Below, in pieces: positions 5,204 through 19,206 of a stretch of 20,000 bases of DNA. Both the position numbers and the translations under genes were made by a program. This stretch comes from an uncultured virus (IMG/VR IMGVR_UViG_3300047094_000158) (taxonomy: Duplodnaviria > Heunggongvirae > Uroviricota > Caudoviricetes), in IMG/VR virus record IMGVR_UViG_3300047094_000158. One strand, given 5' to 3'. Positions within the stretch are counted from its first letter, which is position 1; each line of letters begins with the position of its first letter. The notes under the pieces are model-generated. The model saw only the letters and a list, made by a program, of their open reading frames with translations. It was not told the DNA's origin and did not search any database.

Positions 5204-5227
5204 TATTCCTCCTATAACATTATACCA

Positions 5228-5947: not shown

Positions 5948-5959
5948 GTTTTCCAAACC

Positions 5960-6049
5960 TTACTTTATTTTTGTCTTAAAGACCTTTTTGCCAATTTTAA
6001 CAATTGGTGGAATATTTGTATTTGGAGTAGAAACCTTTACAACTGGCAT
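5960..6049 (-). CDS. 29-aa basic peptide MPVVKVSTPNTNIPPIVKIGKKVFKTKIK
   Basis: Fills the gap; TAATG coupling and GGAGG upstream; not in ORF track. Confidence 0.5.
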   Translation of the reverse strand: MPVVKVSTPNTNIPPIVKIGKKVFKTKIK

Positions 6050-6450
6050 TATAAACTTCCTCCAGGGGTGACATTTCCAAGCACACAAATTGTTCCAATT
6101 ACTGGAGTCCAAATTGTGTCTGCTTCTCCACTACCACCAGGAATTGTAACCTGAAGGTCAAATTGTAATTCTGAAACCACGGACCTATACTGAGTCCCCC
6201 AGTTAGTAGCAATATCTGCAGGTATAGAAATAATTGCATACCCATCATCTTCTGTTACTGTAAGTTCATCAAGAACTTCTCCTGTAGGATCATAGGCTGT
6301 AGATAGGTATGTCCAGCCATCTGTGTCGTAAACAGTTGTTTCGTCATCTTCAAAAAATTCTACTTTTAGGGTCGCATTGTTTCCACGGACTACGGTCCAT
6401 TGAATGTTTGCTGGCGAAGCGCCATATTTTTCTATTGTAGGAGCACACAT
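6049..6450 (-). CDS. Putative virion structural protein
   Basis: WTVVRG...LQFDLQVT...WTPVIGTI, similar pattern to 4853-5203; preceded by TGGTATAAT. Confidence 0.55.
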   Translation of the reverse strand: MCAPTIEKYGASPANIQWTVVRGNNATLKVEFFEDDETTVYDTDGWTYLSTAYDPTGEVLDELTVTEDDGYAIISIPADIATNWGTQYRSVVSELQFDLQVTIPGGSGEADTIWTPVIGTICVLGNVTPGGSL

Positions 6451-6742
6451 AATAATTGATTATACCATTAAATAAAACTGGACACCTAGACGCAGTGGGG
6501 TGGGGGGGTAGTATCTAGGTGCCAGCATAAAAATTATAACATTGTATTATTCTAAAACGGACATATTATAACAAAACGTTATAAACCAGACATTAAAAGA
6601 ATTGTTATAGAATCGTTATAATCATTTCCGCATAAAGTGTAAAAAACCAGGGTATAAAAGTGTATACTTAAAATATATAAAGAAAAAGAATAACTAGCAA
6701 GTAAGGTTTTTAAAGTATCTTATATATTATATATAAAGAAAA

Positions 6743-6958
6743 TTATTTTTTAGAATGATCTTTAAAGTGTTCAAGTAAAAGATCAAATAGTTTGTCAGTT
6801 TTTTCCTCTAGGCGATTAACGGAGTCTTTTAGACTGGATCCAGAATTTGGCTTAAGTTCGTTTAAATAATGCTTTACAAGCCAACGAATTCCACCAGCAA
6901 CAATAGTTACAATGGTAAGAAGAGTTAAGGTTAATGCTGCCCAATCTTGAGGTGACAT
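6743..6958 (-). CDS. Holin-like membrane protein
   Basis: Single N-terminal TM helix, then ELKPNSGSSLKDSVNRLE coiled segment typical of actinophage lysis-cassette membrane proteins. Confidence 0.6.
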   Translation of the reverse strand: MSPQDWAALTLTLLTIVTIVAGGIRWLVKHYLNELKPNSGSSLKDSVNRLEEKTDKLFDLLLEHFKDHSKK

Positions 6959-6987
6959 AAGGTTTATTATATCATTATTTGAGACTG

Positions 6988-7434
6988 TTATTCACAAATG
7001 TATGAAAAAGACATATGAAATAAATCATTTGTTGTTAAACCAATTGGACTGTTGTGGTCAAATGGTTCATCTGCTGCCGAAGATTTAATATTCCAAATTG
7101 TAAAAGTAGAACTGCCATCATCTAAATGTCCTTTAAGACTATAGTGATCCACACCTTGATTTACAATATCATGAACGGAGCCACCATAAACATCCGTATG
7201 GTATTTTGATGGAAACGGAAGTGTTAAGAAATATTGTCCAGTTCCGAAATTACTTACATTATCAAAGTCAACGCTAATTTGAACTTGGATAAAATTTCCT
7301 ATTTTTATATATGTTCCTGTTGCAGGAGTTCCAGTAAAGACTAATCCAGTTCCAGACCATACTGGAAAATAAGATTTTATTTCGGTTGTGAGTCCGCCGA
7401 CATCTCCAAAAGCGGGATGCGTAAATCTTGCCAC
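6988..7434 (-). CDS. Tail-fibre C-terminal-like protein
   Basis: GTYIKIG..V....FGTGQYFLTLPF motif. Confidence 0.55.
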   Translation of the reverse strand: MARFTHPAFGDVGGLTTEIKSYFPVWSGTGLVFTGTPATGTYIKIGNFIQVQISVDFDNVSNFGTGQYFLTLPFPSKYHTDVYGGSVHDIVNQGVDHYSLKGHLDDGSSTFTIWNIKSSAADEPFDHNSPIGLTTNDLFHMSFSYICE

Positions 7435-7713
7435 TTAAGGCTCCAAGCCGATTTGAATCATAGCAACGTTCATAGAGTTTACGGATGAAGTTGCATATAG
7501 CGCATCATTGGATACAAGTTCAAAAGAGATTGAATGGTTTGGCATAATTCTAAACCCGTAGTTAGAAGATGATACTCCTTCGCCACCAATATAAATATAT
7601 CCAGTTGCGTTAACATTTTGTAGGGTAATATCCATTCCGCCGTGTGCGCCTAATGGCGTCAAGCGAGTAGCAGAAGAATCGCTAAGTGTGACTAATGAAT
7701 GCGCTGTTGCCAT
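7435..7713 (-). CDS. Small beta-rich virion protein
   Basis: LQNVN..GYIYIGGEGVSSSNYGF...LYA pattern; ATG 6 nt after TATAAT (leaderless). Confidence 0.6.
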   Translation of the reverse strand: MATAHSLVTLSDSSATRLTPLGAHGGMDITLQNVNATGYIYIGGEGVSSSNYGFRIMPNHSISFELVSNDALYATSSVNSMNVAMIQIGLEP

Positions 7714-7841
7714 ATAGCAATTATATCTATTTATTTAGGCGGGATATAAGTTAAGCCGAAAATAGAGATATCAAACCATCATAAGACATAATACGACTGC
7801 TACGCAGTCCACAAATGTCTAATCGGATGTAGTATCTATGT

Positions 7842-7870
7842 TTGCTTAATATCCCGATATGGGTTATACT
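7842..7870 (+). promoter_or_regulatory. Sigma70-type promoter, leaderless
   Basis: TTGCTT-N17-TATACT, GTG start 5 nt downstream. Confidence 0.55.
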
Positions 7871-7875
7871 TAGAT

Positions 7876-8472
7876 GTGCTAGATATGATTAAGCAAATCC
7901 TTATTGAAGGTTTGACAAGCAAACTAAAAACACATCATTCAGTTTATAGGCTTCCCTGTACAAGTGAGTTTTTGGAAGAACTTATTGCTAACACCTTTAC
8001 AGAACATGGCCTGATAAACGACTGGCAGCCTAATAGAAGCCATTCCGTCAGCGTAGACATGTCTTTAGAGTCAGGCGAAAGTTTCTCTGTTAAATCGGGT
8101 GTATACGCAAATAACACACTAACCTTCTCTGGATCCAGGCTAGGTAAATATCAAACCTTAGATGCCATGATATCTAGCGTAGTGGATAATAGTGCTAAGT
8201 ATTATGTGTGTCTTGCTAAGTCAGACCAGGATTGGTCTTCTGTCCCCGCCGAAAATGAGAAAAAGGTTTATTATCTTTTTGTATTTGATTCCCAAACCTT
8301 GATATATGATAGTGGGGTTTGGAACAAAGTTCAAACCAAGTCTGGAGGATATAACTACGTTATGGAGTCTATAGGTATGTCTGCTAAAATTAATACTAGT
8401 ATGTCCTCACAGTTGTGGACCAGTGTTAGTGAGAGTCTTATTGGTGCCCCGATAAAATTGGAGATATTGTAG
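7876..8472 (+). CDS. Putative PD-(D/E)xK restriction-endonuclease-like protein
   Basis: EFLEELIA...SHSVSVDM...FSVKSG resembles the E...D...(S/E)xK catalytic pattern. Confidence 0.45.
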   Translation: MLDMIKQILIEGLTSKLKTHHSVYRLPCTSEFLEELIANTFTEHGLINDWQPNRSHSVSVDMSLESGESFSVKSGVYANNTLTFSGSRLGKYQTLDAMISSVVDNSAKYYVCLAKSDQDWSSVPAENEKKVYYLFVFDSQTLIYDSGVWNKVQTKSGGYNYVMESIGMSAKINTSMSSQLWTSVSESLIGAPIKLEIL

Positions 8473-8580
8473 TTACTTTTTAAAGTACCAAAATATTATT
8501 GCTACCCCCGACAAAATTGCAAAAATTAACAAACCTCTATCCGAATGATCATATGGATCTGTGTGAACTAAATAATTCAT
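8473..8580 (-). CDS. 35-aa membrane peptide
   Basis: MNYLVHTDPYDHSDRGLLIFAILSGVAIIFWYFKK; TAATG coupling, GAGG RBS. Confidence 0.55.
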   Translation of the reverse strand: MNYLVHTDPYDHSDRGLLIFAILSGVAIIFWYFKK

Positions 8581-8696
8581 TATTCCTCAAATGAGGTTTG
8601 GGATTGTAGTAAGTCATTTACTGTGGTTTGACAATTACAATCACAAGGTTTGTTTATAATAGGAATATCTTTTGGTTTGTCTATGTTAGATTCCAT
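8580..8696 (-). CDS. 38-aa hypothetical protein (CDCNC motif)
   Basis: GGAGG RBS; MESNIDKPKDIPIINKPCDCNCQ... Confidence 0.55.
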   Translation of the reverse strand: MESNIDKPKDIPIINKPCDCNCQTTVNDLLQSQTSFEE

Positions 8697-8838
8697 GATC
8701 CTCCATGTATTTTAGACGTTCCATTAACTTATGGTGTTCTGGATCTTCAAGCATTTCTTTAATTACATCGTTAACTGTTTTCTTTGGAATACCATAGTCA
8801 TCTGGCAAAGATGCTTCAAGATTGTCTAAAATAGCCAT
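8686..8838 (-). CDS. 50-aa hypothetical protein
   Basis: MAILDNLEASLPDDYGIPKK...MEDHGI. Confidence 0.55.
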   Translation of the reverse strand: MAILDNLEASLPDDYGIPKKTVNDVIKEMLEDPEHHKLMERLKYMEDHGI

Positions 8839-8891
8839 ATCAATGCTGCCAAACCAATTATTATGATAGAGACTAGTATTCGTTGTTTCAT
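8826..8891 (-). CDS. 21-aa hydrophobic peptide, leaderless
   Basis: MKQRILVSIIIIGLAALIWLF; ATG 6 nt after TATAAT. Confidence 0.45.
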   Translation of the reverse strand: MKQRILVSIIIIGLAALIWLF

Positions 8892-9110
8892 ATAATAATT
8901 ATACCCTATACCCTGCCAAATCTGAAAAAATTTTCATTTTGAGAAAATCTGAATATTTTTCTTAGATGTATGATATGTAATTTTAAAAATAAAAATGAAA
9001 AAAAATAGTGAGCACACTACTCTGACTCTGTGTAGTGTGTCCTATCATAGTTAGCAAGTGTCCCACCATTTTCTAGGTGGGCTTTGCGTCTTAACTGTTC
9101 AGCAGAATAC

Positions 9111-9308
9111 TCAGACACTCTTGCGTCCTTGTATCCAACCTGAGTGAATACCAATGAGCGGTGCGTCAATGTTGACGGCTGTGCCCAATGGTAATGCGTC
9201 AGCGTATTTGTCAATAAACTCTAACACTTTTTCTTTGCTATCAAACGGCATGTCTTTGACTGCGCCATTTACTGATGTTAATTGAACTGGTATCATTTGT
9301 TCCTTCAC
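9111..9308 (-). CDS. Hypothetical protein, paralog of 12339-12521
   Basis: Aligns with 12339-12521 (NGxVK...SK..V..FI..Y..ALPxG). Confidence 0.75.
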   Translation of the reverse strand: MKEQMIPVQLTSVNGAVKDMPFDSKEKVLEFIDKYADALPLGTAVNIDAPLIGIHSGWIQGRKSV

Positions 9309-9406
9309 TAGTTAAACCAACCTTGTCTATCTGCTGCTATAAAAAATAGCATGGTGGACATAAATACTACAAAAAATATCACGCTACCAATTCCTTCTGT
9401 TTCCAT
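9308..9406 (-). CDS. 32-aa membrane peptide
   Basis: METEGIGSVIFFVVFMSTMLFFIAADRQGWFN; AGGAG RBS. Confidence 0.55.
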   Translation of the reverse strand: METEGIGSVIFFVVFMSTMLFFIAADRQGWFN

Positions 9407-9408
9407 AA

Positions 9409-9513
9409 TTAGTTATTCTCCTCGTCAATTCCAAACATTTCCACAAACACTTTGTTTGCTTCTTGTAAAGCCTCTATGGCTTCGTTAATCTTATCCATGT
9501 TAGCGATAGTCAT
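9409..9513 (-). CDS. 34-aa hypothetical protein
   Basis: MTIANMDKINEAIEALQEANKVFVEMFGIDEENN; TAATG coupling. Confidence 0.6.
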   Translation of the reverse strand: MTIANMDKINEAIEALQEANKVFVEMFGIDEENN

Positions 9514-9671
9514 TAGCGACCACCTGCCTTAACATATTCCATAGCAACATCAAAACCCATTTCGTCAATGAGTTGAGCAGCACGGCGAATGCTAATCTCA
9601 GGTTGAGGATGATTGATAGATAGAGCAGATGAGCCAAACTCATCAGCGATTTCGTTATATATAGTGTTCAT
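9513..9671 (-). CDS. 52-aa hypothetical protein, first gene of leftward early operon
   Basis: AAGAAAGG RBS; MNTIYNEIADEFGSS...VKAGGR. Confidence 0.7.
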   Translation of the reverse strand: MNTIYNEIADEFGSSALSINHPQPEISIRRAAQLIDEMGFDVAMEYVKAGGR

Positions 9672-9720
9672 TTAATGAACCTTTCTTTTAATGCGGTTAA
9701 ACCTTTTAACCTTTTGCTGA

Positions 9721-9753
9721 CCTAGGTTATTTGCTCTTGCGAGGCTCACTAGG
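9721..9753 (-). ncRNA. Structured 5' leader: stem, UGAGC/CAAAUAAC internal loop, GCAA tetraloop
   Basis: Minus strand CCTAG-TGAGC-CTC-GCAA-GAG-CAAATAAC-CTAGG. Confidence 0.55.
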
Positions 9754-9778
9754 ATTTCTTATTTAATTGTATGTCGTA

Positions 9779-9817
9779 AGACTATCATATAAACCTTGAA
9801 AAGTCAAGGCGACACGC
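9779..9817 (-). promoter_or_regulatory. Leftward promoter with GACAC box
   Basis: Minus strand GCGTGTC-gcc-TTGACT-N17-TAGTCT. Confidence 0.75.
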
Positions 9818-9837
9818 TGTCTTTTTTTGTGTGATTT

Positions 9838-9901
9838 GCCTCACTTACTTGCTACGCTCATGCGAACACTTGTTCGCCTTATTTGGTAGGCTCATTGAGA
9901 C
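9838..9901 (-). ncRNA. Candidate small RNA with two opposed UGAGC/CAARUAAG internal loops
   Basis: Minus strand GTCTCA-ATGAGC-CTAC-CAAATAAG-GCGAAC-AAGT-GTTCGC-ATGAGC-GTAG-CAAGTAAG-TGAGGC, downstream of its own promoter, no convincing ORF. Confidence 0.55.
9863..9876. promoter_or_regulatory. Perfect Gram-positive/actinobacterial SOS (LexA) box
   Basis: CGAAC-ACTT-GTTCG. Confidence 0.5.
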
Positions 9902-9928
9902 TATCTTTCTTTATTTATTTATAGTAGA

Positions 9929-9968
9929 ATACTATCACACAATACCTGAAAAGTCAAGACGACACGCC
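9929..9968 (-). promoter_or_regulatory. Leftward promoter with GACAC box
   Basis: Minus strand GGCGTGTC-gtc-TTGACT-N17-TAGTAT; 150 bp from the sister promoter. Confidence 0.75.
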
Positions 9969-10049
9969 GTGAATTACATGCCTGTAATTAGTGATATACA
10001 CCACACGACAAATAGTACAAATCGGACATTGGACTCGGGTTTTTTAGAG

Positions 10050-10112
10050 TTATCCACAGGGGTTATCCACAGACACTTTTATACTGGTGAGTATACTGCT
10101 GAGTTATCCACA
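10050..10112 (+). promoter_or_regulatory. Three perfect DnaA boxes
   Basis: TTATCCACA at 10050, 10063, 10104. Confidence 0.8.
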
Positions 10113-10172
10113 GGCTAATGTGTTGCGGATCACATAAAAATTGTCTCATATACTGGTCAGTAATAGCGAAAA

Positions 10173-10194
10173 TGTCAGTGGTCTATGTTAGACT
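10173..10194 (+). promoter_or_regulatory. PafBC/RecA-NDp-type promoter
   Basis: TGTCAG-N10-TAGACT, no TTG -35. Confidence 0.7.
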
Positions 10195-10243
10195 TACCAG
10201 TATAAAGAAAGTGAGAAACTCTCACTAAAGAAAGGAATTCAAA

Positions 10244-10417
10244 ATGAATTCACTAAAAGAAAAAGTGTGTAAGCATACACCTAATAAAAATGCTATCTCT
10301 ATCGTTCATGATGAGCGATTTACTTTCTGCGAGGATTGTGAGCAGAATATAACTTCTCACCTTCGTGAGGATAATGACTTCATGTCATACTGGACTTCAT
10401 GGAAGGTTGGTAAGTAA
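10244..10417 (+). CDS. 57-aa Cys/His protein, paralog of 11244-11426
   Basis: AAGAAAGG RBS; VCKHTPNKNAISIVHDERFTFCEDCEQNI...WTSWKV. Confidence 0.75.
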   Translation: MNSLKEKVCKHTPNKNAISIVHDERFTFCEDCEQNITSHLREDNDFMSYWTSWKVGK

Positions 10418-10516
10418 ATGATAACAACCTTAGCATGTCGCTTGTGCGATAATAAAATTTCTAGTGAATTCTTTGATGAGCAAGATATAATTACTTGCTC
10501 TAATTGTTGGGAGTAA
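10418..10516 (+). CDS. 32-aa zinc-finger peptide
   Basis: MITTLACRLC...ITCSNCWE. Confidence 0.6.
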   Translation: MITTLACRLCDNKISSEFFDEQDIITCSNCWE

Positions 10517-10520
10517 ATAA

Positions 10521-10712
10521 ATGAAAACTGATTTTGAAATTCAGCAAGATTTAGAAAATGAATTTAATGAAATGCTTGATGAATGTTATCCCACTGTGGA
10601 AATTGGTGGCATAACTTTTTACCCTTCTCAAATTGTAAAAGATTGCGATCCAATTGCTTATCGTGTCTGGTTATCTGATTGGGAAGCAGACGCAGAAAGT
10701 AGAGGAGAATAA
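10521..10712 (+). CDS. Conserved small phage protein
   Basis: FNEMLDECYPTVEIGG.TFYPSQIVKDCDPIAYR motif; GGGAG RBS. Confidence 0.75.
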   Translation: MKTDFEIQQDLENEFNEMLDECYPTVEIGGITFYPSQIVKDCDPIAYRVWLSDWEADAESRGE

Positions 10713-10714
10713 AA

Positions 10715-10840
10715 ATGTTAAAAGAAATAAAAAATAAAATAATTCGTATTCAAGAATTGCGCCGCAGTAATGCGGCTACTGCAATTCCAAATAAGAAAAA
10801 ATATTCTAGAAAAATAAAACATAAAAATAAATTGCAATAA
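10715..10840 (+). CDS. 41-aa basic peptide with ArfA-like C-terminal motif
   Basis: MLKEIKNKIIRIQELRRSNAATAIPNKKKYSRKIKHKNKLQ; AGGAG RBS. Confidence 0.6.
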   Translation: MLKEIKNKIIRIQELRRSNAATAIPNKKKYSRKIKHKNKLQ

Positions 10841-10853
10841 AAAACCCGAGGAG

Positions 10854-10874
10854 TTATCCACAGGTTTATCCACA
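10854..10874 (+). promoter_or_regulatory. Two perfect DnaA boxes
   Basis: TTATCCACA at 10854 and 10866. Confidence 0.8.
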
Positions 10875-11000
10875 TGATACGTATCACATTTACCCCCCTC
10901 TATAAAAGCCCTGCTCAGAGCCTTAATTGGCATACCTATAGAAATGTGGCGTACATCACAAATCAAAATGTCCGTTTTGCCCTACTTACTGGCTAGTAGA

Positions 11001-11022
11001 TGTCAGACCCCCCTGTTATACT
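11001..11022 (+). promoter_or_regulatory. PafBC/RecA-NDp-type promoter
   Basis: TGTCAG-N10-TATACT, no TTG -35. Confidence 0.7.
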
Positions 11023-11072
11023 TACTAGTATAAAGAAAGTTAAATAAAGGTTATTTAACAAGAAAGGTCAAA

Positions 11073-11195
11073 ATGACAAACAGAATATTTGAAAAAGATA
11101 TAACAGATACTATGGCTCAACTTATGGGCTACAATAAATGTGAAAAATGCGGTGGCGGTTGGATAGCCCAACCAATATGCGTAATGTGTAAATAA
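11073..11195 (+). CDS. 40-aa zinc-finger peptide
   Basis: AAGAAAGG RBS; CEKC...CVMCK. Confidence 0.65.
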   Translation: MTNRIFEKDITDTMAQLMGYNKCEKCGGGWIAQPICVMCK

Positions 11196-11243
11196 TAACT
11201 TAATAAAATAAAATTAACTAACAAAAAAGAAAGGTTGTCTAAA

Positions 11244-11426
11244 ATGATAACACTAGAAAAAACAATAGTATGCAAAGAGCATACACCAAATAAATCTGCT
11301 ATCTCTATGGTAGGAGATGACCAATTCACATTCTGCGAAAGTTGTGAACAAAATATTGAGCGTTGGTATAACGATACTGACCCAGAGCGTCTGCCTATGT
11401 GGACAGATTGGAAAGTGTCTAACTAA
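11244..11426 (+). CDS. Cys/His protein, paralog of 10244-10417
   Basis: VCKEHTPNKSAISMVGDDQFTFCESCEQNI...WTDWKV. Confidence 0.75.
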   Translation: MITLEKTIVCKEHTPNKSAISMVGDDQFTFCESCEQNIERWYNDTDPERLPMWTDWKVSN

Positions 11427-11602
11427 TGAGTATTGAACTTCAAGATGTACTAAATGTCTGCCGTCAAATTCGTGGAAACGATAGAGACTCAGGCGCACAC
11501 TATTTACTTGGTTATCTTTGGGCTAACACTCCAAAGAAAGAACAAATTAGAATTGCAAAACTATTTAATAACGATTTATTAGAACAGGAAAAAAATAAAT
11601 GA
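11426..11602 (+). CDS. 58-aa hypothetical protein
   Basis: TAATG coupling; MSIELQDVLNVCRQ...YLLGYLWAN... Confidence 0.65.
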   Translation: MSIELQDVLNVCRQIRGNDRDSGAHYLLGYLWANTPKKEQIRIAKLFNNDLLEQEKNK

Positions 11603-11700
11603 ATAACTTTTATCAAACCTTTTTTGTAAGTGGTAACGCATTGTTTTGGTTTTCAATGATCTGTTTATCTTATGCATTTTATTTATTCGTAAAAGAATAA
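11599..11700 (+). CDS. 33-aa membrane peptide
   Basis: ATGA overlap; hydrophobic ALFWFSMICLSYAFYLFV. Confidence 0.55.
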   Translation: MNNFYQTFFVSGNALFWFSMICLSYAFYLFVKE

Positions 11701-11851
11701 TTATTCAGATCACTGCATAAAAAACCCGACTCCCCTGGCGTGTCGTCCACAGCCTGTGGATAACTTACGAGATGTGTTTAAGATCACAGAAATTTTGTGG
11801 GGCATATCACACCTCTGAGCGTCTCATTATTTGGAATTACTGGCTAGTAAG

Positions 11852-11880
11852 TTGTAAATGTCTGCTAATTTTGATAGACT
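11852..11880 (+). promoter_or_regulatory. Promoter with -35 and PafBC-like element
   Basis: TTGTAA-a-TGTCTG-N10-TAGACT. Confidence 0.65.
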
Positions 11881-11917
11881 TACATAGTAAGAAAATAACG
11901 AAAGGAAGTGGCTAACA

Positions 11918-12118
11918 ATGGCTAACTTATACACAATAGAAAACTTGCTAATTGGCAAGACTTATAACTCAAAAACTTTGCGTGGAGAAATTATCTCAGC
12001 AGAAAAACACCCTAAAGCAATTTGGTATGGAGAAAATACCGAAGCCTATTTGGTGGAAATTAACTCTGGAACTTTCAGAAATAAATTCCGCACAATAGCG
12101 GTGAAGGTTGGTGAATAA
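11918..12118 (+). CDS. Small beta-barrel (SH3-like) hypothetical protein
   Basis: GAAAGGAAG RBS; IGKTYNSKTLRGEII pattern. Confidence 0.7.
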   Translation: MANLYTIENLLIGKTYNSKTLRGEIISAEKHPKAIWYGENTEAYLVEINSGTFRNKFRTIAVKVGE

Positions 12119-12120
12119 TA

Positions 12121-12243
12121 ATGGGATACATTGAAATTTTTAGATTAGATGAAAATGGTGCTGGCTGGGTAGATTTATCTGAGGCTACCCCGCAGGAATT
12201 GCTTGACCTAGAAATAGGCTTATTTCAGGAAGGGGCTTTGTGA
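12121..12243 (+). CDS. 40-aa acidic peptide
   Basis: MGYIEIFRLDENGAGWVDLSEATPQELLDLEIGLFQEGAL. Confidence 0.6.
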   Translation: MGYIEIFRLDENGAGWVDLSEATPQELLDLEIGLFQEGAL

Positions 12244-12304
12244 GATAAATCACAAGGCAACACACCCCTAGCAGGTTGAAAATGTCAGGGATTTTTGGTA
12301 GGAT
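12239..12304 (+). promoter_or_regulatory. Perfect Crp/GlxR box plus promoter with PafBC-like element
   Basis: TGTGA-GATAAA-TCACA (12239-12254); TTGAAA-a-TGTCAG-N10-TAGGAT (12276-12304). Confidence 0.7.
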
Positions 12305-12338
12305 AGTCCTATCAAACAATAAAGAAAGGTGGTCAGAA

Positions 12339-12521
12339 ATGACTTACACTATAACACTAGAAACCTTTAATGGTTCTGTAAAAAAAATCAGCGTTCCTTC
12401 AAAGGGTGCTGTATCTCAATTCATCAACGAATACCCAAAGGCTTTGCCTGTTGGTATCTCTGTAAAAATGTCTTGCGACGCTCTTGGCGTTCGTGGAACA
12501 TTGAGGGGGTTGGCTAAATGA
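12339..12521 (+). CDS. Hypothetical protein, paralog of 9111-9308
   Basis: AAGAAAGGTGG RBS before ATG 12339. Confidence 0.75.
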   Translation: MTYTITLETFNGSVKKISVPSKGAVSQFINEYPKALPVGISVKMSCDALGVRGTLRGLAK

Positions 12522-12667
12522 TAAACTCTGTAATGGCTTTTGATTGTGATGAGTGTAATGGGCAAGGTCTTATTTTTTGGGGTAATGATCTTGACTATGA
12601 TGTAGAAAAGTGCGAATGTGAAAATTTTGCACTAGGCACTTTATTTACCACTAAGGAGAACGACTAA
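12518..12667 (+). CDS. 49-aa zinc-binding peptide, paralog of 13346-13531
   Basis: CDECNGQG...GNDLDYDVEKCEC...LFTTKEND. Confidence 0.7.
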   Translation: MINSVMAFDCDECNGQGLIFWGNDLDYDVEKCECENFALGTLFTTKEND

Positions 12668-12879
12668 TGATGACTAGAAAAGACTATATTAAAACCGCAA
12701 ATATTCTAAAAGGATTTGTTGATGAAATTCCACAAATTACTTATGAGGATTTAGTAAATGAGTTTGCTGAGTGGTTCAAATCTGATAATGAAAACTTTGA
12801 TTTCGCAAGATTTGAGAAGGCTTGTGGAATTGATGAAATTGGTTTAGTTCCTGTTGGATCTGAAATGTGGAAGGGGTAA
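12667..12879 (+). CDS. Conserved small phage protein
   Basis: MTRKDY...A......F..DN.NFD.ARF.KAC motif; AAGGAG RBS. Confidence 0.75.
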   Translation: MMTRKDYIKTANILKGFVDEIPQITYEDLVNEFAEWFKSDNENFDFARFEKACGIDEIGLVPVGSEMWKG

Positions 12880-12883
12880 ATAA

Positions 12884-13030
12884 ATGTTAACTGATTTAGA
12901 TTTAATTGCAATAATAATTGCGCTAACTGGTTGCTTAACTGTTATGTTTTTATTTTGGAAACAAAATATTGCACAACAAAAAGAAATTCGTAGATTGCGT
13001 AATGAATTGCGTAAACTTCTTAAAGTATAA
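12884..13030 (+). CDS. 48-aa membrane/coiled-coil peptide
   Basis: N-terminal TM (LIAIIIALTGCLTVMFLFW) and basic helix. Confidence 0.6.
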   Translation: MLTDLDLIAIIIALTGCLTVMFLFWKQNIAQQKEIRRLRNELRKLLKV

Positions 13031-13036
13031 AATGAA

Positions 13037-13062
13037 ATCCTGGACATGATATAAAACTGTCC
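13037..13062 (+). ncRNA. 3'-UTR H-type pseudoknot, copy 1
   Basis: ATC-CT-GGACA-T-GAT-ATAAAAC-TGTCC. Confidence 0.6.
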
Positions 13063-13161
13063 GAACGTTTGTTCTAAAAATCCCCGAGGCGTTTTCCACA
13101 GGTTTGTCCACAGGCCTTTACGTGTGATTAAAAACACACCCCAGATTCCCCAGATCTTTAC

Positions 13162-13200
13162 GGCGTGTCGTTTGAAAACGTCAGTCCAGTCTGCTAGGAT
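13162..13200 (+). promoter_or_regulatory. Promoter with GACAC box and PafBC-like element
   Basis: GGCGTGTC-gt-TTGAAA-a-CGTCAG-N10-TAGGAT. Confidence 0.7.
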
Positions 13201-13223
13201 AAAGATATAACGAAAGGAAAACT

Positions 13224-13346
13224 ATGAAAGATTACTTTGATGAATTCTATGATGACTACTATTCTAACGTTGAGCGTGTTAGCGTGTCTGATTGCTATTG
13301 TAAAACTATGATGCTATGCTCGTATTGTGCGAAGGGATATAACTAA
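13224..13346 (+). CDS. 40-aa Cys-rich peptide
   Basis: GAAAGGA RBS; DCYC...LCSYC. Confidence 0.6.
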   Translation: MKDYFDEFYDDYYSNVERVSVSDCYCKTMMLCSYCAKGYN

Positions 13347-13531
13347 TGGGTAAAGTTAAAAATGCACTAATGGATATTCTTGCTCATAGCGATTGCTATG
13401 GCGCAGGTTGGCAATTCGTAGGAAATGCTATAGACTATGATGTATGGGCGTGTGAGTGTAATCCTTACAATATCCCTGCTGATGAAATACAGGACTACCA
13501 CCAATTATTTAAAACTAAGGAGAACGCATAA
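13346..13531 (+). CDS. Zinc-binding protein, paralog of 12518-12667
   Basis: HSDCYGAG...GNAIDYDVWACEC...LFKTKENA. Confidence 0.7.
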   Translation: MGKVKNALMDILAHSDCYGAGWQFVGNAIDYDVWACECNPYNIPADEIQDYHQLFKTKENA

Positions 13532-13740
13532 TGGAATATAATTATTCACTTACTACTTCGTATGACGGAGAGTTAGTTCATACCCTGCGAGTTAGCGACA
13601 TGCTAGAGGCAGTAAACGCTTGGACTAAATGTGTAGACTTTGGCGATGCTAAAGAATACGCAACCTATAATTTATCTGACCCAACAGGTAAAATGTATAC
13701 AAAGACCTTCTACACTAACGGAAATGTGGTAATTAAATAA
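13531..13740 (+). CDS. Hypothetical protein
   Basis: AAGGAG RBS, TAATG coupling. Confidence 0.7.
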   Translation: MEYNYSLTTSYDGELVHTLRVSDMLEAVNAWTKCVDFGDAKEYATYNLSDPTGKMYTKTFYTNGNVVIK

Positions 13741-14027
13741 TGGGATCAATAACAGCACTAGGAATTAAAGATGAAGTCTTAGACTTAGAAACTCAATTAC
13801 TTTATCACTTAAAGGGTAATCACTATCCACCAGTACCAGCAGAGATGGTTAAGCCTTGTATTGAAGCGATTGACGCATTCTATGATGAGGACTATCAACG
13901 CATGATTGAGATGCCTATGGTTGGCGACTTTCAAATTTTATATCGTGGAATGACACACGCACCTGCTAGCGCAATAGTAAGCCAGCACCACCTAGAGTGG
14001 TTTATTGACCCAGTAAATGAGGACTAA
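13740..14027 (+). CDS. Hypothetical protein
   Basis: HLKGNHYPPVP...SQHHLEWF His-rich motif; TAATG coupling. Confidence 0.7.
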   Translation: MGSITALGIKDEVLDLETQLLYHLKGNHYPPVPAEMVKPCIEAIDAFYDEDYQRMIEMPMVGDFQILYRGMTHAPASAIVSQHHLEWFIDPVNED

Positions 14028-14028
14028 G

Positions 14029-14268
14029 ATGATTGATCTAGAAAATGATGATACCATTCAGATTGTGGACTATGTAAAAGTTGATATATTAACTTCAGGT
14101 CAATTAGAGATTGAAGATTGTATTCTAATTGGCGATGAAGTTGTGTCTATTGTAGATATAGTATCACTACCTGATGGATATACTTTAGAAATTGTAAATG
14201 ATTTTGGTGAAAGAGAAATAATTGAAGTTGGCGAATACGACCAATTTGATTTAATGATGTTACAGTAA
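14029..14268 (+). CDS. Acidic hypothetical protein
   Basis: GAGG RBS before ATG 14029. Confidence 0.65.
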   Translation: MIDLENDDTIQIVDYVKVDILTSGQLEIEDCILIGDEVVSIVDIVSLPDGYTLEIVNDFGEREIIEVGEYDQFDLMMLQ

Positions 14269-14315
14269 AGGCCGCCCGAGTAGCGATTTGTCCGATTTGT
14301 ATCAATTAAGAAGGC

Positions 14316-14344
14316 TTGATATTTTCTCCAAATTATGCTAAAAT
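14316..14344 (+). promoter_or_regulatory. Sigma70 promoter, leaderless
   Basis: TTGATA-N17-TAAAAT with TG extension; ATG 6 nt downstream. Confidence 0.7.
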
Positions 14345-14350
14345 TTTTAT

Positions 14351-15079
14351 ATGAACACACCACAGTTAAAAAGATCACATGATAGAAAGGTGACTAACCT
14401 TGTCACAAAAAATGGAAAACAGTCCGCTATTGCCAATACTTTTGGATTACCTGCTGGAAAAGAATTCTCATGTCCTGGGGCTACTAGTGTCTGCGAAAGT
14501 GTCTGCTACGCAGGAAAACTTGAAAAGTTATTCAAAGGAGTAAAAACTAATCTCCTGCACAATTGGGAGTTATTGAAAAACGCTGATCATGAAACTATGA
14601 CGGCATTGCTATATGTAATGATTGCTGATTTTAAAAAAGATTGTGATAAGAAGAATGCACAAAAACTATTCCGTATCCACTGGGACGGAGATTTCTTTAA
14701 TGACACTTACACAAAAGCATGGAAAGAAGTTATAGAGTATCATAGTGACGTAAAGTTTTGGGTATACACTAGAGTACATTCTGCAGCGGTAATGCTCAAG
14801 GACATCCCTAATCTATCTTTATACTATTCAACAGATAGCGAGAATAAAGATATTGGTGTTAGTTTAAAGAAAGATCACGGAGTGCGTCTTGCATACCTTG
14901 CAAAGAATTTTGCTATTGGTCAAGCAGACATGAAAGAGTTATTCAACCGTCCTGGCGCTAAGTGTCCTGAGAATCTAAAGTCTATCCCCCTTATCTCAAA
15001 TAGTGGAAGTGCTTGCGTATCATGCGGATTGTGTGTATACTCAAAGAGCGACATCGTATTCTCGTCATCTAAAAAATAG
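14351..15079 (+). CDS. GP88-like protein (mycobacteriophage L5 gp88 family; Cys-rich, possibly Fe-S/radical-SAM-related)
   Basis: FGLPAG..SCPGATSVCESVCYAGK, FRIHWDGDF, FWVYTR, CP...CVSCGLC. Confidence 0.75.
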   Translation: MNTPQLKRSHDRKVTNLVTKNGKQSAIANTFGLPAGKEFSCPGATSVCESVCYAGKLEKLFKGVKTNLLHNWELLKNADHETMTALLYVMIADFKKDCDKKNAQKLFRIHWDGDFFNDTYTKAWKEVIEYHSDVKFWVYTRVHSAAVMLKDIPNLSLYYSTDSENKDIGVSLKKDHGVRLAYLAKNFAIGQADMKELFNRPGAKCPENLKSIPLISNSGSACVSCGLCVYSKSDIVFSSSKK

Positions 15080-15088
15080 GAGTATCGC

Positions 15089-15154
15089 TTGGAAATGTTA
15101 ATAATACTATCAATCATATTCTGCTGCCTATTGTTCGCAGGTATGGGTCATTAA
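15089..15154 (+). CDS. Short hydrophobic peptide
   Basis: AGGAG RBS then TTG/ATG; LIILSIIFCCLLFAG. Confidence 0.35.
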   Translation: MEMLIILSIIFCCLLFAGMGH

Positions 15155-15201
15155 GTGTGGTCTAAATCACATCTCAAAATATGAGATTATTGTGATATAA
15201 C

Positions 15202-15230
15202 TTGTATTTTTGGGATAAAAATGTTAGACT
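15202..15230 (+). promoter_or_regulatory. Sigma70 promoter
   Basis: TTGTAT-N17-TAGACT; Crp-like box at 15156-15171 upstream. Confidence 0.65.
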
Positions 15231-15265
15231 TGTATAGTAAGCAAAAACCAACAAAAAGGAGAACC

Positions 15266-15433
15266 ATGTCCGTATCAAACGCAACTTACAAAGTAGGGGA
15301 TACCTACACAAGCCAAAAGTCCAAAGCCACAGGCGTTATCAAAGAAATCGTGCCACAGGCAAATGGTAATGTTCGTGTTAAGTTAGATGTTGCTGGCGCA
15401 ACTCGCTGGACAACTTGGACAGCAAAGTCATAA
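15266..15433 (+). CDS. Small SH3-like protein, paralog of 16057-16227
   Basis: AAGGAG RBS; TYKVGDTYTSQKSKATGVI. Confidence 0.75.
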   Translation: MSVSNATYKVGDTYTSQKSKATGVIKEIVPQANGNVRVKLDVAGATRWTTWTAKS

Positions 15434-15436
15434 CAC

Positions 15437-15481
15437 TTTAGCAAACGCTAAAAGTCCTGAGCATGACTACTAAAACTGCTC
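15437..15481 (+). ncRNA. Hairpin plus H-type pseudoknot, copy 2
   Basis: TTTAGC-AAAC-GCTAAA then AGTC-CT-GAGCA-T-GACT-ACTAAAAC-TGCTC. Confidence 0.7.
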
Positions 15482-15488
15482 ACCACAA

Positions 15489-15510
15489 TGTCAGACCAAC
15501 CCCCTATACT
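15489..15510 (+). promoter_or_regulatory. PafBC/RecA-NDp-type promoter
   Basis: TGTCAG-N10-TATACT, no TTG -35. Confidence 0.7.
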
Positions 15511-15542
15511 AGAAATATAACCCACTAAAGAAAAGGAACACC

Positions 15543-15965
15543 ATGTCAAGAGGAAAAGCAATCTCAGTAAAAATCCCTACTGCTAGAGTAATCAAAGCAC
15601 TAGAAACTAAACTAGCACAACTAGAAAAAGACTATGCTACACAAGGTGAAAACGAAGCAAAGTATCAAAAGGCTTACAAGGCTTGGCAAAAAGAACTTGC
15701 TGAGTTCGCAGTAGGTAAAATTGCTAAGGCTGAGAACATCAGAACCAATTATCGTTCTTGGAACTCAACACTAAATGTTGATTTTGATTTAATTCTCAAA
15801 GATGGAGAATTTCCTAAAGAGCCTGAAAAGGATTTTGAGGTTATCCACTCTCATACTTACAATGAGCAGAAAGAGGAAATGTCTAACGCTATTCGTATCC
15901 TCAAGATGACAGATGAGGAAGTAGTTAATACTTCTACATACAACGCAGTTGCTCGTTATCTCTAA
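15543..15965 (+). CDS. Helical hypothetical protein
   Basis: AAAGGA RBS; 140 aa ORF with strong codon bias. Confidence 0.8.
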   Translation: MSRGKAISVKIPTARVIKALETKLAQLEKDYATQGENEAKYQKAYKAWQKELAEFAVGKIAKAENIRTNYRSWNSTLNVDFDLILKDGEFPKEPEKDFEVIHSHTYNEQKEEMSNAIRILKMTDEEVVNTSTYNAVARYL

Positions 15966-15989
15966 TTAGATAGAGATGGGGGAGGGTAT

Positions 15990-16018
15990 TTGACTCCCCC
16001 GTCAAAATCTAGTAAAAT
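15990..16018 (+). promoter_or_regulatory. Sigma70 promoter overlapping a GC hairpin
   Basis: TTGACT-N17-TAAAAT; GGGGGAG...CTCCCCC inverted repeat at 15978-16000. Confidence 0.6.
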
Positions 16019-16056
16019 TAAATAATACAAACCACCATAAACAGAAAAGGAAAATC

Positions 16057-16227
16057 ATGACACTAGGCGGATACACATATCAACTAGGTGATCTATTCAC
16101 CACAAGCAAAACTGGCGTTACAGGTAGAATTGTAAAATTCTCACCTATCAACTCTAAACTAACTAGAGTATCGCTACAGTTAGCAAACGGCTCTCGTCGT
16201 TTAGCAATGGTATCAACAACTAAATAA
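16057..16227 (+). CDS. 56-aa SH3-like protein, paralog of 15266-15433
   Basis: AAAGGA RBS; TYQLGDLFTTSKTGVTGRI...RVSLQLANGSRR. Confidence 0.75.
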   Translation: MTLGGYTYQLGDLFTTSKTGVTGRIVKFSPINSKLTRVSLQLANGSRRLAMVSTTK

Positions 16228-16282
16228 ATAAACAGGGGGGGTAGACAACCTGCCCCCCTCTAACTAAGAAAGTAGGCCCCTT

Positions 16283-16693
16283 ATGGAGCAAACAACAATA
16301 CATGCAACTGAAGATTATCTTAGATCTCAGATTGCAGAAAAAAATGAACGCATTCTAACACTGGAGCAACACATCCAAAGAGTAACACAACGTGACTACA
16401 CAGGCGCTGCTAACCTAACAGCAATGCGTGATCAAATGCATACGTGGACCACGACTGAATTAGAAAATCAAGATATCACAAAAGAGCAGGCAGAAGCAAT
16501 TGCTGAAATCTGTGGATTTGAATTAACTAATGAAGTTGAGGTCATGGTAACCGTAGAATATTCAATGACCATTAATGTACCTGCAGGTGAAGATGTAGAA
16601 GATATCATTCATGATATTGATTTTGACGCAATCTCATATGACACTGACAAGATAACTTATGTTTCTAGTTCTCTTAGTGGAGTGGAGTTTTAG
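16283..16693 (+). CDS. Hypothetical protein (coiled-coil N-terminus, acidic C-terminus)
   Basis: 136 aa ORF, GAAAGTAGG RBS. Confidence 0.75.
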   Translation: MEQTTIHATEDYLRSQIAEKNERILTLEQHIQRVTQRDYTGAANLTAMRDQMHTWTTTELENQDITKEQAEAIAEICGFELTNEVEVMVTVEYSMTINVPAGEDVEDIIHDIDFDAISYDTDKITYVSSSLSGVEF

Positions 16694-16735
16694 TAGGGGG
16701 CTACTAAAGGACCTGGGCACGTCTTTAAACTGCCT
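16689..16735 (+). ncRNA. Hairpin plus H-type pseudoknot, copy 3
   Basis: TTTAGTAG-GGGG-CTACTAAA then GGAC-CT-GGGCA-C-GTCT-TTAAAC-TGCCT. Confidence 0.65.
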
Positions 16736-16824
16736 CACAAATCCCCAGCAAAAATCCTCGGGGAATATCCCAAATGTCCGATTTATACCATTTAAGAAGA
16801 TTAAACTATTTTCCCCAGTCCTGA

Positions 16825-16853
16825 TTGACATTGTCAGCCATGAGTGCTAAAAT
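16825..16853 (+). promoter_or_regulatory. Consensus promoter with PafBC-like element
   Basis: TTGACA-t-TGTCAG-N10-TAAAAT. Confidence 0.75.
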
Positions 16854-16879
16854 TAATTAAAACAACCGAAAGGATAAAA

Positions 16880-17902: not shown

Positions 17903-17934
17903 CAAAAAATCCTGAGCATGATTTTAAACTGCTC
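17884..17934 (+). ncRNA. Hairpin plus H-type pseudoknot, copy 4
   Basis: TGTTATGC-AACTA-GCATAACA then AAAATC-CT-GAGCA-T-GATTTT-AAAC-TGCTC. Confidence 0.7.
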
Positions 17935-17942
17935 ACCTTCAA

Positions 17943-18016: not shown

Positions 18017-18072
18017 CAAGCGGGGTCGGGTTTTATAACAAAAATGTTATTTATTTTTTCTATTAAGAATAC

Positions 18073-18101: not shown

Positions 18102-18107
18102 TAATTT

Positions 18108-18653: not shown

Positions 18654-18676
18654 GAACCTACAGAAAGAGACCCTGA

Positions 18677-19198: not shown

Positions 19199-19206
19199 GG
19201 AGACCC

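Follow-up and report, generated by a model that had tools for sequence, protein, structure and literature searches.

The stretch of DNA discussed here (the window) comprises 20,000 nucleotides (nt) of an uncultured virus, IMG/VR record IMGVR_UViG_3300047094_000158, and corresponds to bases 18939-38938 of this 42,423-base record, which has 37% GC and a CheckV completeness of 39%. Beyond a group of leftward small genes (start codon at 9671), 14 tiny open reading frames (ORFs) of 32-70 amino acids (aa), mostly without a family, are arranged in four short operons between 10244 and 13030 on the plus strand. They alternate with five spacers, defined here as 9672-10243, 10841-11072, 11701-11917, 12244-12339 and 13031-13223 (cassettes A to E), which occupy 1310 of the 42,423 bases (3.1%). 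A GP88-family protein (14351-15079; Pfam E=3.6e-53) and a DUF932 protein (16844-17902, its true start probably being ATG 16880) are encoded further downstream. An earlier inspection of the letters alone, the sequence-only reading, had described the spacers as tiled with operators of the type used by host transcription factors, and all five spacers and every motif on its list proved to be in place. To judge from their arrangement and conservation, the spacers are conserved control cassettes of small early operons.

Each spacer ends in a promoter, as had been claimed (10166-10194, 11001-11022, 11852-11880, 12276-12304 and 13172-13200). A -35-like hexamer (TTGAAA, GCGAAA or TTGTAA) stands directly before (A/T)TGTCAG and is followed, after a 17-nt spacer, by an extended -10 element (TGnTAGGAT, TAGACT or TATACT); a GAAAGGA ribosome site (a strong Shine-Dalgarno sequence) and an ATG lie downstream. 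Cassette A (9672-10243) is a divergent control region, with the leftward small genes on one side and the rightward operon that starts at ATG 10244 on the other. Its minus strand bears two strong leftward promoters, repeated at a spacing of 150 base pairs (bp): P_L1 (9779-9817), with -35 TTGACT at 9802-9807, a 17-nt spacer, TGA-TAGTCT at 9779-9787 and GCGTGTCG at 9810-9817, and P_L2 (9929-9967), with TTGACT-17-TAGTAT, a TG and GCGTGTCG at 9960-9967. GGCGTGTCG is found 2 nt upstream of each -35. The same part of the cassette holds a CRP-like site, TGTGATTTGCCTCACT, with one mismatch (9830-9845, plus strand) and a perfect 16-bp palindrome resembling an SOS/LexA box, GCGAAC-ACTT-GTTCGC (9862-9877), which is flanked by two ATGAGC(C/G)TA(C/G)CAA(A/G)TAAG repeats (9846-9900, read on the minus strand). 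In relatives, up to four copies of GAGCCTAGCAAATAA lie upstream of the leftward promoter. Towards the rightward operon follow, in inverted orientation, AAATCGGACAT (the ATGTCCGnTTT motif) and CTCGGGTTTT (the A-tract-CCCGAG motif) at 10019-10043 on the minus strand; three perfect DnaA boxes (10050-10058, 10063-10071 and 10104-10112, plus strand) with TACTGGTGAGTA (10082-10093) in between; the CRP-like site TGTGTTGCGGATCACA (10119-10134, plus strand), 6 nt past the third box; and promoter P_A (10151-10202, plus strand), composed of TACTGGTCAGTA (10151-10162), -35 GCGAAA (10166-10171), TGTCAG (10173-10178) and TGT-TAGACT (10186-10194), with a near-copy of TACT-N4-AGTA over its -10/+1 region.

The remaining cassettes all read on the plus strand. 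Cassette B (10841-11072) opens with AAAACCCGAG (10841-10850), a pair of DnaA boxes 3 bp apart (10854-10862 and 10866-10874) and the palindrome TGATACGTATCA (10874-10885), continues with a CRP-like site (10945-10960), ATGTCCGTTTT (10968-10978) and TACTGGCTAGTA (10987-10998), and ends with TGTCAG (11001-11006), TGT-TATACT (11014-11022), TACTTACTAGTA over the -10/+1 region (11019-11030) and ATG 11073. Cassette C (11701-11917) carries AAAACCCGAC (11721-11730), GGCGTGTCG (11737-11745) overlapping the weak box TCGTCCACA (11742-11750), a perfect DnaA box that is inverted and thus on the minus strand (11755-11763), two CRP-like sites (11773-11788 and 11796-11811), TACTGGCTAGTA (11838-11849) and TGA-TAGACT (11872-11880) before ATG 11918. 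Cassette D (12239-12338) is minimal: a perfect TGTGAGATAAATCACA (12239-12254) overlaps the stop codon of the upstream gene, and the promoter consists of -35 TTGAAA (12276-12281), TGTCAG (12283-12288) and TGG-TAGGAT (12296-12304), with ATG at 12339. Cassette E (13031-13223) begins with a covarying hairpin (13037-13066), CGAACGTTTGTTCT (13062-13075) and A-tract-CCCGAGG (13077-13090), followed by a DnaA-like pair 3 bp apart (TTTTCCACA and TTGTCCACA, 13092-13100 and 13104-13112), the CRP-like site TGTGATTAAAAACACA (13123-13138), CCAGATTCCCCAGAT (13141-13155), GGCGTGTCG (13162-13170), TTGAAA (13172-13177), TGC-TAGGAT (13192-13200) and ATG 13224. The CCAGATTCCCCAGAT site forms a direct repeat, CCAGATT-CC-CCAGAT, between the CRP-like site and the -35, which most cassette E orthologues conserve as CCAGATTnnCCAGATT. 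That the spacers reshuffle common motifs and are not copies of each other was borne out, as only blocks are common to them: B and E, for instance, have a 36-nt stretch in common at 86%, and A and B one of 41 nt at 80%. The same architecture extends past the range originally noted, to 15080-15220, 15434-15542, 16694-16879 and 17903-17989. Between 15080 and 15542 we find the CRP-like site TGTGGTCTAAATCACA (15156-15171), a hairpin (15454-15487) and TGTCAG (15489-15494). The cassette of the DUF932 gene (16694-16879) comprises a hairpin-like CCTGGGCA...TGCC, AAATCCTCGGGG (16752-16763), ATGTCCGATTT (16774-16784), TTGACA-T-TGTCAG (16832-16837), TGC-TAAAAT (16845-16853) and ATG 16880, and contains neither a DnaA box nor a CRP-like site.

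The claim that these promoters drive sets of tiny ORFs agrees with the gene map, in which the 14 ORFs follow the spacers as four operons with GAAAGGA sites. Scans of 25 and 22 tiny ORFs against Pfam and PHROG matched no DNA-binding family, the only PHROGs found being of unknown function, and none of the 22 matched a helix-turn-helix (HTH) family. Two of the ORFs, 10244-10417 (57 aa) and 11244-11426 (60 aa), are paralogous (79 nt at 78% DNA identity); they have a CxH...CxxC spacing, stand first or second in their operon and match no family. A search of 9000-17500 for known RNA families (Rfam, E<=1) returned only a chance snoRNA match (E=0.79) and thus no known RNA family in the spacers, and the idea, formed by eye, that the A-tract-CCCGAG block is half of an intrinsic terminator was dropped, as no complementary arm was seen.

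The sequence-only reading had made its case depend on enrichment over a shuffled background. We shuffled the whole record 100 times with dinucleotides preserved. In comparison, the perfect DnaA box TTATCCACA occurs eight times, six of them in the five spacers (shuffle mean 0.62, maximum 2), and TGTGA-N6-TCACA with at most one mismatch nine times, seven in spacers (mean 2.12, maximum 6), the spacer copies being one perfect site (12239-12254) and six with one mismatch. All four copies of GCGTGTCG (mean 0.16), five of the six of TACT-N4-AGTA (mean 0.99), both of CGAAC-N4-GTTCG with at most one mismatch (mean 0.22) and two of the six of ATGTCCGTTTT with at most one mismatch (mean 0.73) lie in spacers as well. 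The DnaA, CRP-like, GCGTGTCG, TACT-N4-AGTA and CGAAC-N4-GTTCG motifs are thus enriched but, by count alone, AAAACCCGAG is not: its four copies with at most one mismatch (three in spacers) are not significant against the shuffles (mean 1.89, maximum 7). Enrichment within the spacers is partly circular, because the motifs were picked after viewing these very spacers; the relatives provide an independent test, and there the motifs recur. The motifs are non-random.

We found 188 relatives in IMG/VR and kept 80, with a GP88 identity of 77-92%. The motifs recur in these 80 loci while the sequence between them diverges, so that the predicted conservation despite spacer divergence is indeed seen, and pairs of DnaA boxes occupy equivalent places in nearly all of them. 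Among 19 distinct orthologues of cassette E (mean pairwise identity 0.61, minimum 0.40), the conserved blocks are the hairpin, TCCACAGG-TTATCCACAGG, TGTG.TTAA.A.CACAC, TGTC.G and TGATAGGAT, joined by variable linkers, and GAACATTTGTTC is retained in 12 of the 19. We then used promoter cores as anchors: 380 were located in the related loci (345 of them on the strand of the genes, 35 on the opposite one), giving 215 non-redundant upstream sequences, many of them orthologous and hence not independent events, for which 2000 random 200-nt segments from the same loci served as comparison. CRP-like sites are present in 176 of the 215 upstreams (82%, vs 9.5% of random segments), DnaA boxes with at most one mismatch in 90 (42% vs 10.7%), GCGTGTC in 111 (52% vs 5.3%), ATGTCCGnTTT in 95 (44% vs 6.9%), GAAC-N4-GTTC in 15 (7% vs 0.6%) and TACT-N4-AGTA in 19 (9% vs 1.8%). 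Assuming that transcripts start 7 nt after the -10, DnaA boxes sit at about -130 to -90 and the centres of CRP-like sites at -85 to -64 (peaks at -64.5, -74.5 and -84.5, smaller ones at -69.5 and -76.5), followed by ATGTCCGnTTT at -65 to -50, TACT-N4-AGTA at -45 to -40 and GCGTGTC at -45 and also farther upstream. In cassettes A, C and E of the window the CRP-like site begins 6-11 nt past a DnaA box. The order of the modules is fixed.

To which phage do the cassettes belong? No cultured phage matched 9700-13300 in a near-identity DNA search. GP88 matches come from Mycobacterium, Streptomyces or Fromanvirus phages in 386 of 391 records, and the best matches of the DUF932 protein are in actinophages. 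The near-complete relatives (n=5) measure 104-115 kilobases (kb) and all encode WhiB, a protein that, as described (PMC10202952), is confined to Actinobacteriota and marks actinophages. One complete relative (G002; 109,757 bases with a 72-base terminal overlap) encodes a portal protein, DnaB-like helicase, DnaG-type primase, the alpha subunit of DNA polymerase III (Pol III alpha), RecA, ribonucleotide reductase, thioredoxin and WhiB, the last being its sole recognised transcription factor. Of its 151 called ORFs, the 118 of at least 70 aa were scanned (E<=1e-5), and neither an integrase, repressor, sigma factor or RNA polymerase nor a replication initiator was recognised among them. More than 10 metagenome runs from lakes contain most of the stretch. 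Because of the GP88 and DUF932 matches, WhiB, the gene content of the relatives and the occurrence in lake-water metagenomes, the record is best described as a fragment of a virulent-looking phage of about 110 kb that would infect a low-GC freshwater actinobacterium. An attempt to find the host through phage-type WhiB in bacterial genomes yielded four matches, those examined being contigs of 33-34% GC binned into metagenome-assembled genomes (MAGs). These WhiB-bearing, phage-like contigs (L089-L091) sit in MAGs labelled Saccharibacteria and Acidimicrobiaceae; as the lexA locus of the Acidimicrobiaceae MAG has 72% GC, they are likely binning contamination, that is misbinned phage DNA with no host signal. 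A single base, at window position 3029, differs between the window and the genome record.

Which proteins, then, might bind the cassettes? The DnaA assignment appears to be the strongest. As the sequence-only reading had noted, the spacers match the DnaA consensus (TT[A/T]TNCACA): they contain six exact copies of the universal 9-mer TTATCCACA together with TTTTCCACA and TTGTCCACA, and in three cassettes the boxes form pairs 12-13 nt apart from start to start. Pairs spaced by 3 bp, with the same flanks, are carried by 119 or more viral stretches, which range from 27 to 63% GC and mostly have no relation to this phage family; this points to a universal protein, DnaA. In the five near-complete relatives the perfect boxes cluster in the early region, and none of these genomes yielded a DnaA_C (DnaA domain IV), HTH_Crp_2 or LexA_DNA_bind domain, while controls were detected; therefore, if proteins of these families bind, they must be the host's. 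Separately, some relatives carry an origin-like cluster 7.5-8.4 kb downstream of GP88, in which a DnaA pair is accompanied by an AT-rich stretch, three AGTGGAG iterons and CCAAACCT repeats (L050 at about 15.8 kb, L053 at about 16.1 kb and L065 at about 15.6 kb, all on the minus strand). In our own record, the iterons and CCAAACCT repeats are present at about 40.56-40.76 kb, outside the window, and the DnaA pair is absent.

The match to the CRP/GlxR consensus was upheld by the relatives, whose position matrix reads TGTGA-TnTAnA-TCACA. Across 232 sites, the first inner position is T in 57% and A in 0%, the central positions are T in 55% and A in 67%, and the sixth inner position is A in 71% and T in 2%. 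Inner bases with a central TA (T..TA..A) are typical of CRP/GlxR sites, while Rex sites have A....T. The inner T-n-T-A-n-A thus supports a CRP/GlxR-type site, opposite to Rex, and Rex was rejected as the binder of TGTGA-N6-TCACA on these grounds. All but two of the 232 sites lie upstream of -60, and this placement, off the core promoter, may be of the activator type; in E. coli, CRP activates from about -61.5, -71.5 and -82.5, on one face of the helix. We regard both the DnaA and the CRP-type sites as credible on the strength of these patterns.

The LexA assignment stands at about even odds. The likeness to the LexA consensus that had been pointed out is real, given that 26 distinct contexts in the relatives define CGAAC-A-nn-T-GTTCG and that the palindrome at 9862-9877 agrees with the SOS core in 12 of 12 positions. 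A second box of this kind is CGAACGTTTGTTCT in cassette E (13062-13075). The actinobacterial SOS box has the consensus TCGAAC-N4-GTTCGA, and the region upstream of lexA in an actinobacterial MAG carries GAACAGGTGTTCGA, which resembles the phage boxes. The conserved A..T at the edges of the N4 argues for recognition of the duplex rather than for an RNA hairpin.

For the other operators the candidates are less specific. The core of WhiA sites is GACAC, which lies inside GCGTGTCG and GGCGTGTCG; with only 5 nt, it cannot discriminate. Three of the four GCGTGTCG copies sit 1-2 nt upstream of a -35. TACT-N4-AGTA overlaps the -35, and also the -10/+1 region at promoters A and B, and so looks like a repressor-type operator whose protein is possibly encoded by the phage. 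Scanning 401 Actinomycetota genomes for a host regulon of TTACTGGNNAGTAA was uninformative (matches in 43 genomes, at most two per genome, with controls of similar order). The ATGTCCGnTTT motif (AAAnCGGACAT on the other strand) is common to this phage and Streptomyces phage Jay2Jay, and its binder could be either a pan-actinobacterial factor or a conserved phage protein.

The hairpin at the start of cassettes deserves separate attention. It follows the pattern TCCTG-[5 bp]-nGAnnnAAAAC-[5 bp] and occurs 285 times on the gene strand vs 24 times on the other. In an alignment of 74 sequences anchored on the flanks and loop only, 96.5% of the cells pair, vs 86.8% in shuffles and at most 38% in slid controls; two-sided changes are seen at each of the five pairs, in 32 cells vs 3.9 in shuffles, and the U-G wobbles fit a sense RNA. 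The hairpin is real and strand-specific. Copies in the window lie at 13037-13066, 15454-15487 and 17909-17940 (just after the DUF932 gene), all on the plus strand, with a variant near 16715-16745. Having a conserved 11-nt loop and no U-tract, it may serve as a U-less terminator, a processing site or a protein target. Cassette E, which starts with this hairpin, precedes at least five different first genes in the relatives, and cassette A and GP88 are separated by a variable number of operons (DnaA-box positions range from -2.9 to -5.4 kb). Contigs from lake metagenomes and metatranscriptomes join 10191 or 11022 (the ends of -10 hexamers) to 12321, 15426 to 17909, 17935 to 10850 or 15517 (hairpin edges) and 13224 to 13368; these joins are weak evidence, because their sides are short (21-41 letters) and stem from relatives. 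Taken at face value, they imply population variants in which whole small operons are missing or swapped. Since their blocks are conserved, the cassettes, we infer, also act as recombination joints at which small genes are swapped.

How could such cassettes work? The host's sigma-A-type RNA polymerase would drive the tiny, mostly orphan genes of a host-takeover-like region from the extended -10 promoters. Starting from the upstream end, a cassette would consist of an optional RNA hairpin at the end of the preceding operon, an optional SOS-box-like palindrome and the A-tract-CCCGAGG block; then a single DnaA box or, more usually, two with 3 bp between them, the CRP/GlxR-type palindrome and ATGTCCGnTTT; and finally TACTGGnnAGTA or GGCGTGTCG by the -35 and the core promoter with TGTCAG in its spacer. 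A host protein of the CRP/GlxR type would act from its activator-like position, and host DnaA on the paired boxes might modulate the promoter and perhaps block read-through from the upstream operon; in E. coli, DnaA-box complexes block RNA polymerase. At some cassettes the LexA-like boxes would add damage control, and the repressor-type TACT-N4-AGTA could bring about an early shut-off, possibly by a phage-encoded protein. We put the probability that the spacers are early promoters for host RNA polymerase with upstream host DnaA and CRP/GlxR-type sites, optional SOS-like boxes and other operators at roughly 0.55. In part, this rescues the earlier idea that the phage reads the state of its host combinatorially: the DnaA and CRP-type sites are credible and LexA is possible, but the "lipid" and "division" readings have no basis, as no result supports either. 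A more ambitious version, in which the takeover operons are wired at once to DnaA (replication and growth), a CRP/GlxR-type sensor of cyclic AMP (cAMP; energy and carbon) and, at some cassettes, LexA (DNA damage) through enhanceosome-like cassettes, so that the start of infection is computed from the state of a slow-growing, oligotrophic host, is less likely than not. We would be similarly hesitant about its corollary that DnaA-bound pairs insulate operons while the cassettes double as recombination joints.

Several observations weigh against host regulation of the cassettes. The CRP-like centres in the window (-64.5, -74.5, -76.5, -76.5, -83.5 and -106.5) are not strictly in helical phase, the position peaks in the relatives stem from a few orthologous promoter families and not from 215 independent events, and only one of the seven window sites is perfect, TGTGG variants being also one mismatch from an inverted DnaA box. 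LexA-like boxes lie off the core promoter, where LexA usually acts: they are found 130-170 bp upstream of the next -10 (about 130 bp in cassette E), and in cassette A the box falls between the leftward promoters, at about +45 from one and -60 from the other. Moreover, the box is missing from seven of the 19 orthologous E cassettes and hence is dispensable, and in some relatives the palindrome is lengthened by GC-rich arms and becomes a terminator-like hairpin. TACT-N4-AGTA (TTACTGGnnAGTAA) shows no regulon-like multiplicity in the 401 sampled Actinomycetota genomes. As Jay2Jay has ATGTCCGnTTT without the DnaA, CRP, LexA or TACT motifs, a conserved phage protein could own this motif, and the early ORFs may include tiny DNA-binding proteins that went unrecognised. 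We observed directly the motifs, how they are ordered and conserved, the signals of the promoters and that relatives encode no DnaA, CRP or LexA domains, and it is from these that we infer the identity of the binders and the sign of regulation; the specificities of host DnaA, CRP and LexA were assumed from phylum-wide consensus sequences and may not be those of the actual host. Finally, a metatranscriptome run on 8000-20000 consisted of contigs, which must come from relatives because they are mostly 88-95% alike; it gave no transcript starts or ends, and the uncovered parts are uninformative.

As an alternative, proteins made by the phage (tiny early ones, its WhiB or another unrecognised DNA binder) might use most or all of the motifs as operators to time an early-to-middle switch, the likeness of the motifs to host sites being coincidence or mimicry. 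The stoperators of mycobacteriophage L5 and the conserved inverted repeats of phiC31 reportedly follow the same logic, as phage-repressor operators in intergenic spacers. The layout of TACT-N4-AGTA, at -45/-40 and over -10/+1 at promoters A and B, is repressor-like, TGTCAG is conserved inside the promoter spacer, Jay2Jay shares ATGTCCGnTTT despite being distantly related and having a very different host, and TTACTGGnnAGTAA is without a regulon signal in the 401 actinobacterial genomes. We nevertheless consider this explanation unlikely: it does not account for six exact universal DnaA 9-mers, or for 3-bp-spaced pairs with their flanks in many unrelated phages; five near-complete relatives lack DnaA, Crp and LexA DNA-binding domains, WhiB is the only transcription factor recognised in the complete relative, and 22 tiny ORFs have no HTH match; early promoters, too, must fire before any phage protein exists. 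The boxes might instead serve replication, with cassette A as an origin at which host DnaA loads the phage DnaB, or titrate DnaA as a decoy to stop host initiation. Cassette A, 572 bp long, combines three perfect boxes with divergent promoters, 150-bp repeats and an AT-rich tract (9895-9935), the family has DnaB, DnaG and Pol III alpha with no recognised initiator, distant relatives carry the DnaA pair by an AT-rich stretch, iterons and CCAAACCT repeats, and the absence of a pair from the downstream region of our record leaves the cassettes as its only clusters. Against this, the boxes stand at a fixed -130 to -90 before many separate promoters, abutting a CRP-like site, and in cassettes B and E no AT-rich unwinding element adjoins them; we consider either role improbable.

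Equally little credence can be given to the view that the cassettes are plain promoter-plus-hairpin recombination modules, like the PeSLs of T4-like phages, whose extra motifs have no regulatory partners. It draws on the five or more different first genes behind cassette E, the variable operon number, the contig joins at -10 hexamers and hairpins, and the hairpin itself, real and strand-specific. Recombination, however, needs identity and not a particular sequence, so that the exact DnaA 9-mers, the conservation of CRP-like half-sites around variable inner bases and the fixed distances to promoters are left unexplained. Still another proposal takes the region as first-injected DNA, with sites that gather host proteins into a coat by which the entering DNA is protected or paused, in the manner proposed for the T5 injection-stop signal. 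In Jay2Jay the homologous GP88-DUF932 block stands no more than 5.3 kb from the left end, each record of those phages is matched by DUF932 at two places, as terminal repeats would predict, and the T5-like DnaA boxes lie in first-step-transfer DNA (10.1101/866236). Yet the record is a fragment, the terminal overlap of the complete relative measures only 72 bp, the boxes occupy promoter spacers between operons and not a long untranslated repeat region, and the Jay2Jay end has no DnaA boxes. We hold this last scenario to be highly improbable, and the ideas of a decoy, a protective coat or first-injected DNA put forward by the sequence-only reading found no supporting evidence in the analysis.

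Cassettes of this kind have partial precedents, and the statement that no phage system of such density and variety had been described was too strong, since DnaA-box pairs of T5-like phages came before (10.1101/866236). According to that work, which cites Heusterspreute 1987, T5-like phages have eight DnaA boxes in pairs 3 bp apart within first-step-transfer DNA, in its injection-stop region. The likeness is close: large (about 110-120 kb) virulent phages, TTATCCACA and one-mismatch boxes in 3-bp-spaced pairs (here 10854/10866 and 13092/13104), about eight boxes per region, conservation across relatives and a location away from the known replication origin. As described there, the T5 boxes lie in one untranslated region of repeats and palindromes in the terminal repeat, without promoters, and an injection stop was proposed; here, by contrast, boxes are spread over promoter spacers, with a CRP-like site and a promoter after each, and the host is actinobacterial. 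PeSLs (promoter-early stem-loops) are composite cassettes of a stem-loop and an early promoter that mediate gene shuffling in T4-like phages (PMC4122927). Here too, units of hairpin and promoter (cassette E and 15454-15542) accompany small orphan genes in variable regions, one cassette stands beside different genes, and cassettes mark the ends of indels or replacements between relatives (the contig joints being weak); phage lineage and host phylum differ, a relation in sequence is presumably lacking, and our cassettes are longer (95-570 bp) and have additional conserved blocks (DnaA, CRP-like and others), which PeSLs are not described as carrying, and an 11-nt-loop hairpin without a U-tract. 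The module for host takeover in SPO1 offers a third parallel, with small early genes, strong promoters and strong ribosome sites (PMC6873191; Stewart 1998 cited there). About two dozen small early genes in short operons, strong host-type promoters and ribosome sites, a large virulent phage and a Gram-positive host are shared features, the counterpart here being the 14 ORFs of 32-70 aa in four operons (10244-13030) with extended -10 promoters and GAAAGGA sites. According to the same text, the SPO1 module differs in lying in the terminal redundancy and in having genes shown to shut off host functions, and its promoters are not reported there with arrays of host-regulator sites. In the sources consulted, none of the T5, PeSL and SPO1 systems is described as combining several types of host-regulator site in a fixed order before each early operon, and our literature search found no report of these cassettes or of the promoters of this phage family.

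The L5 stoperators and phiC31 inverted repeats mentioned above are reportedly also numerous, short, conserved sites in short intergenic regions of actinophage early regions. They are said to represent one site type bound by one phage repressor in temperate phages, whereas at least seven site types occur here, two of which match universal host-factor consensus sequences, and the ORFs scanned in the complete relative included neither a recognised repressor nor an integrase.

If host DnaA and a CRP-type protein do act on the cassettes, a lytic phage would read several host signals combinatorially at the first step of infection, which would give a molecular entry point to the delayed or state-dependent lysis of oligotrophs and extend the T5 DnaA-box puzzle to another phylum. 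The family is abundant in lakes, and its likely hosts are slow-growing actinobacteria that are hard to culture. Whichever proteins bind, the cassettes offer a ready catalogue of actinobacterial promoter and operator parts and may represent a second example, outside the T4-like phages, of regulatory cassettes used as gene-shuffling joints.

A further parallel in design is Jay2Jay (Streptomyces, BE cluster). Its terminal early region likewise encodes a GP88-like protein (49% identity) and then a DUF932 protein (54%), with many small genes separated by gaps of 70-190 bp, each containing a hairpin, the AAAnCGGACAT motif and a TGnTAGACT promoter. This synteny speaks for an early identity of the region in our phage. 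The 14 kb end differs in having no DnaA pair, CRP-like site, GAAC-N4-GTTC or TACT-N4-AGTA; GC-rich terminators and TGTCCGnCCCGGACA palindromes are present instead. Bases 1-14000 of Jay2Jay (L231) thus display a parallel intergenic design and offer a cultured system for the cassette parts that are shared.

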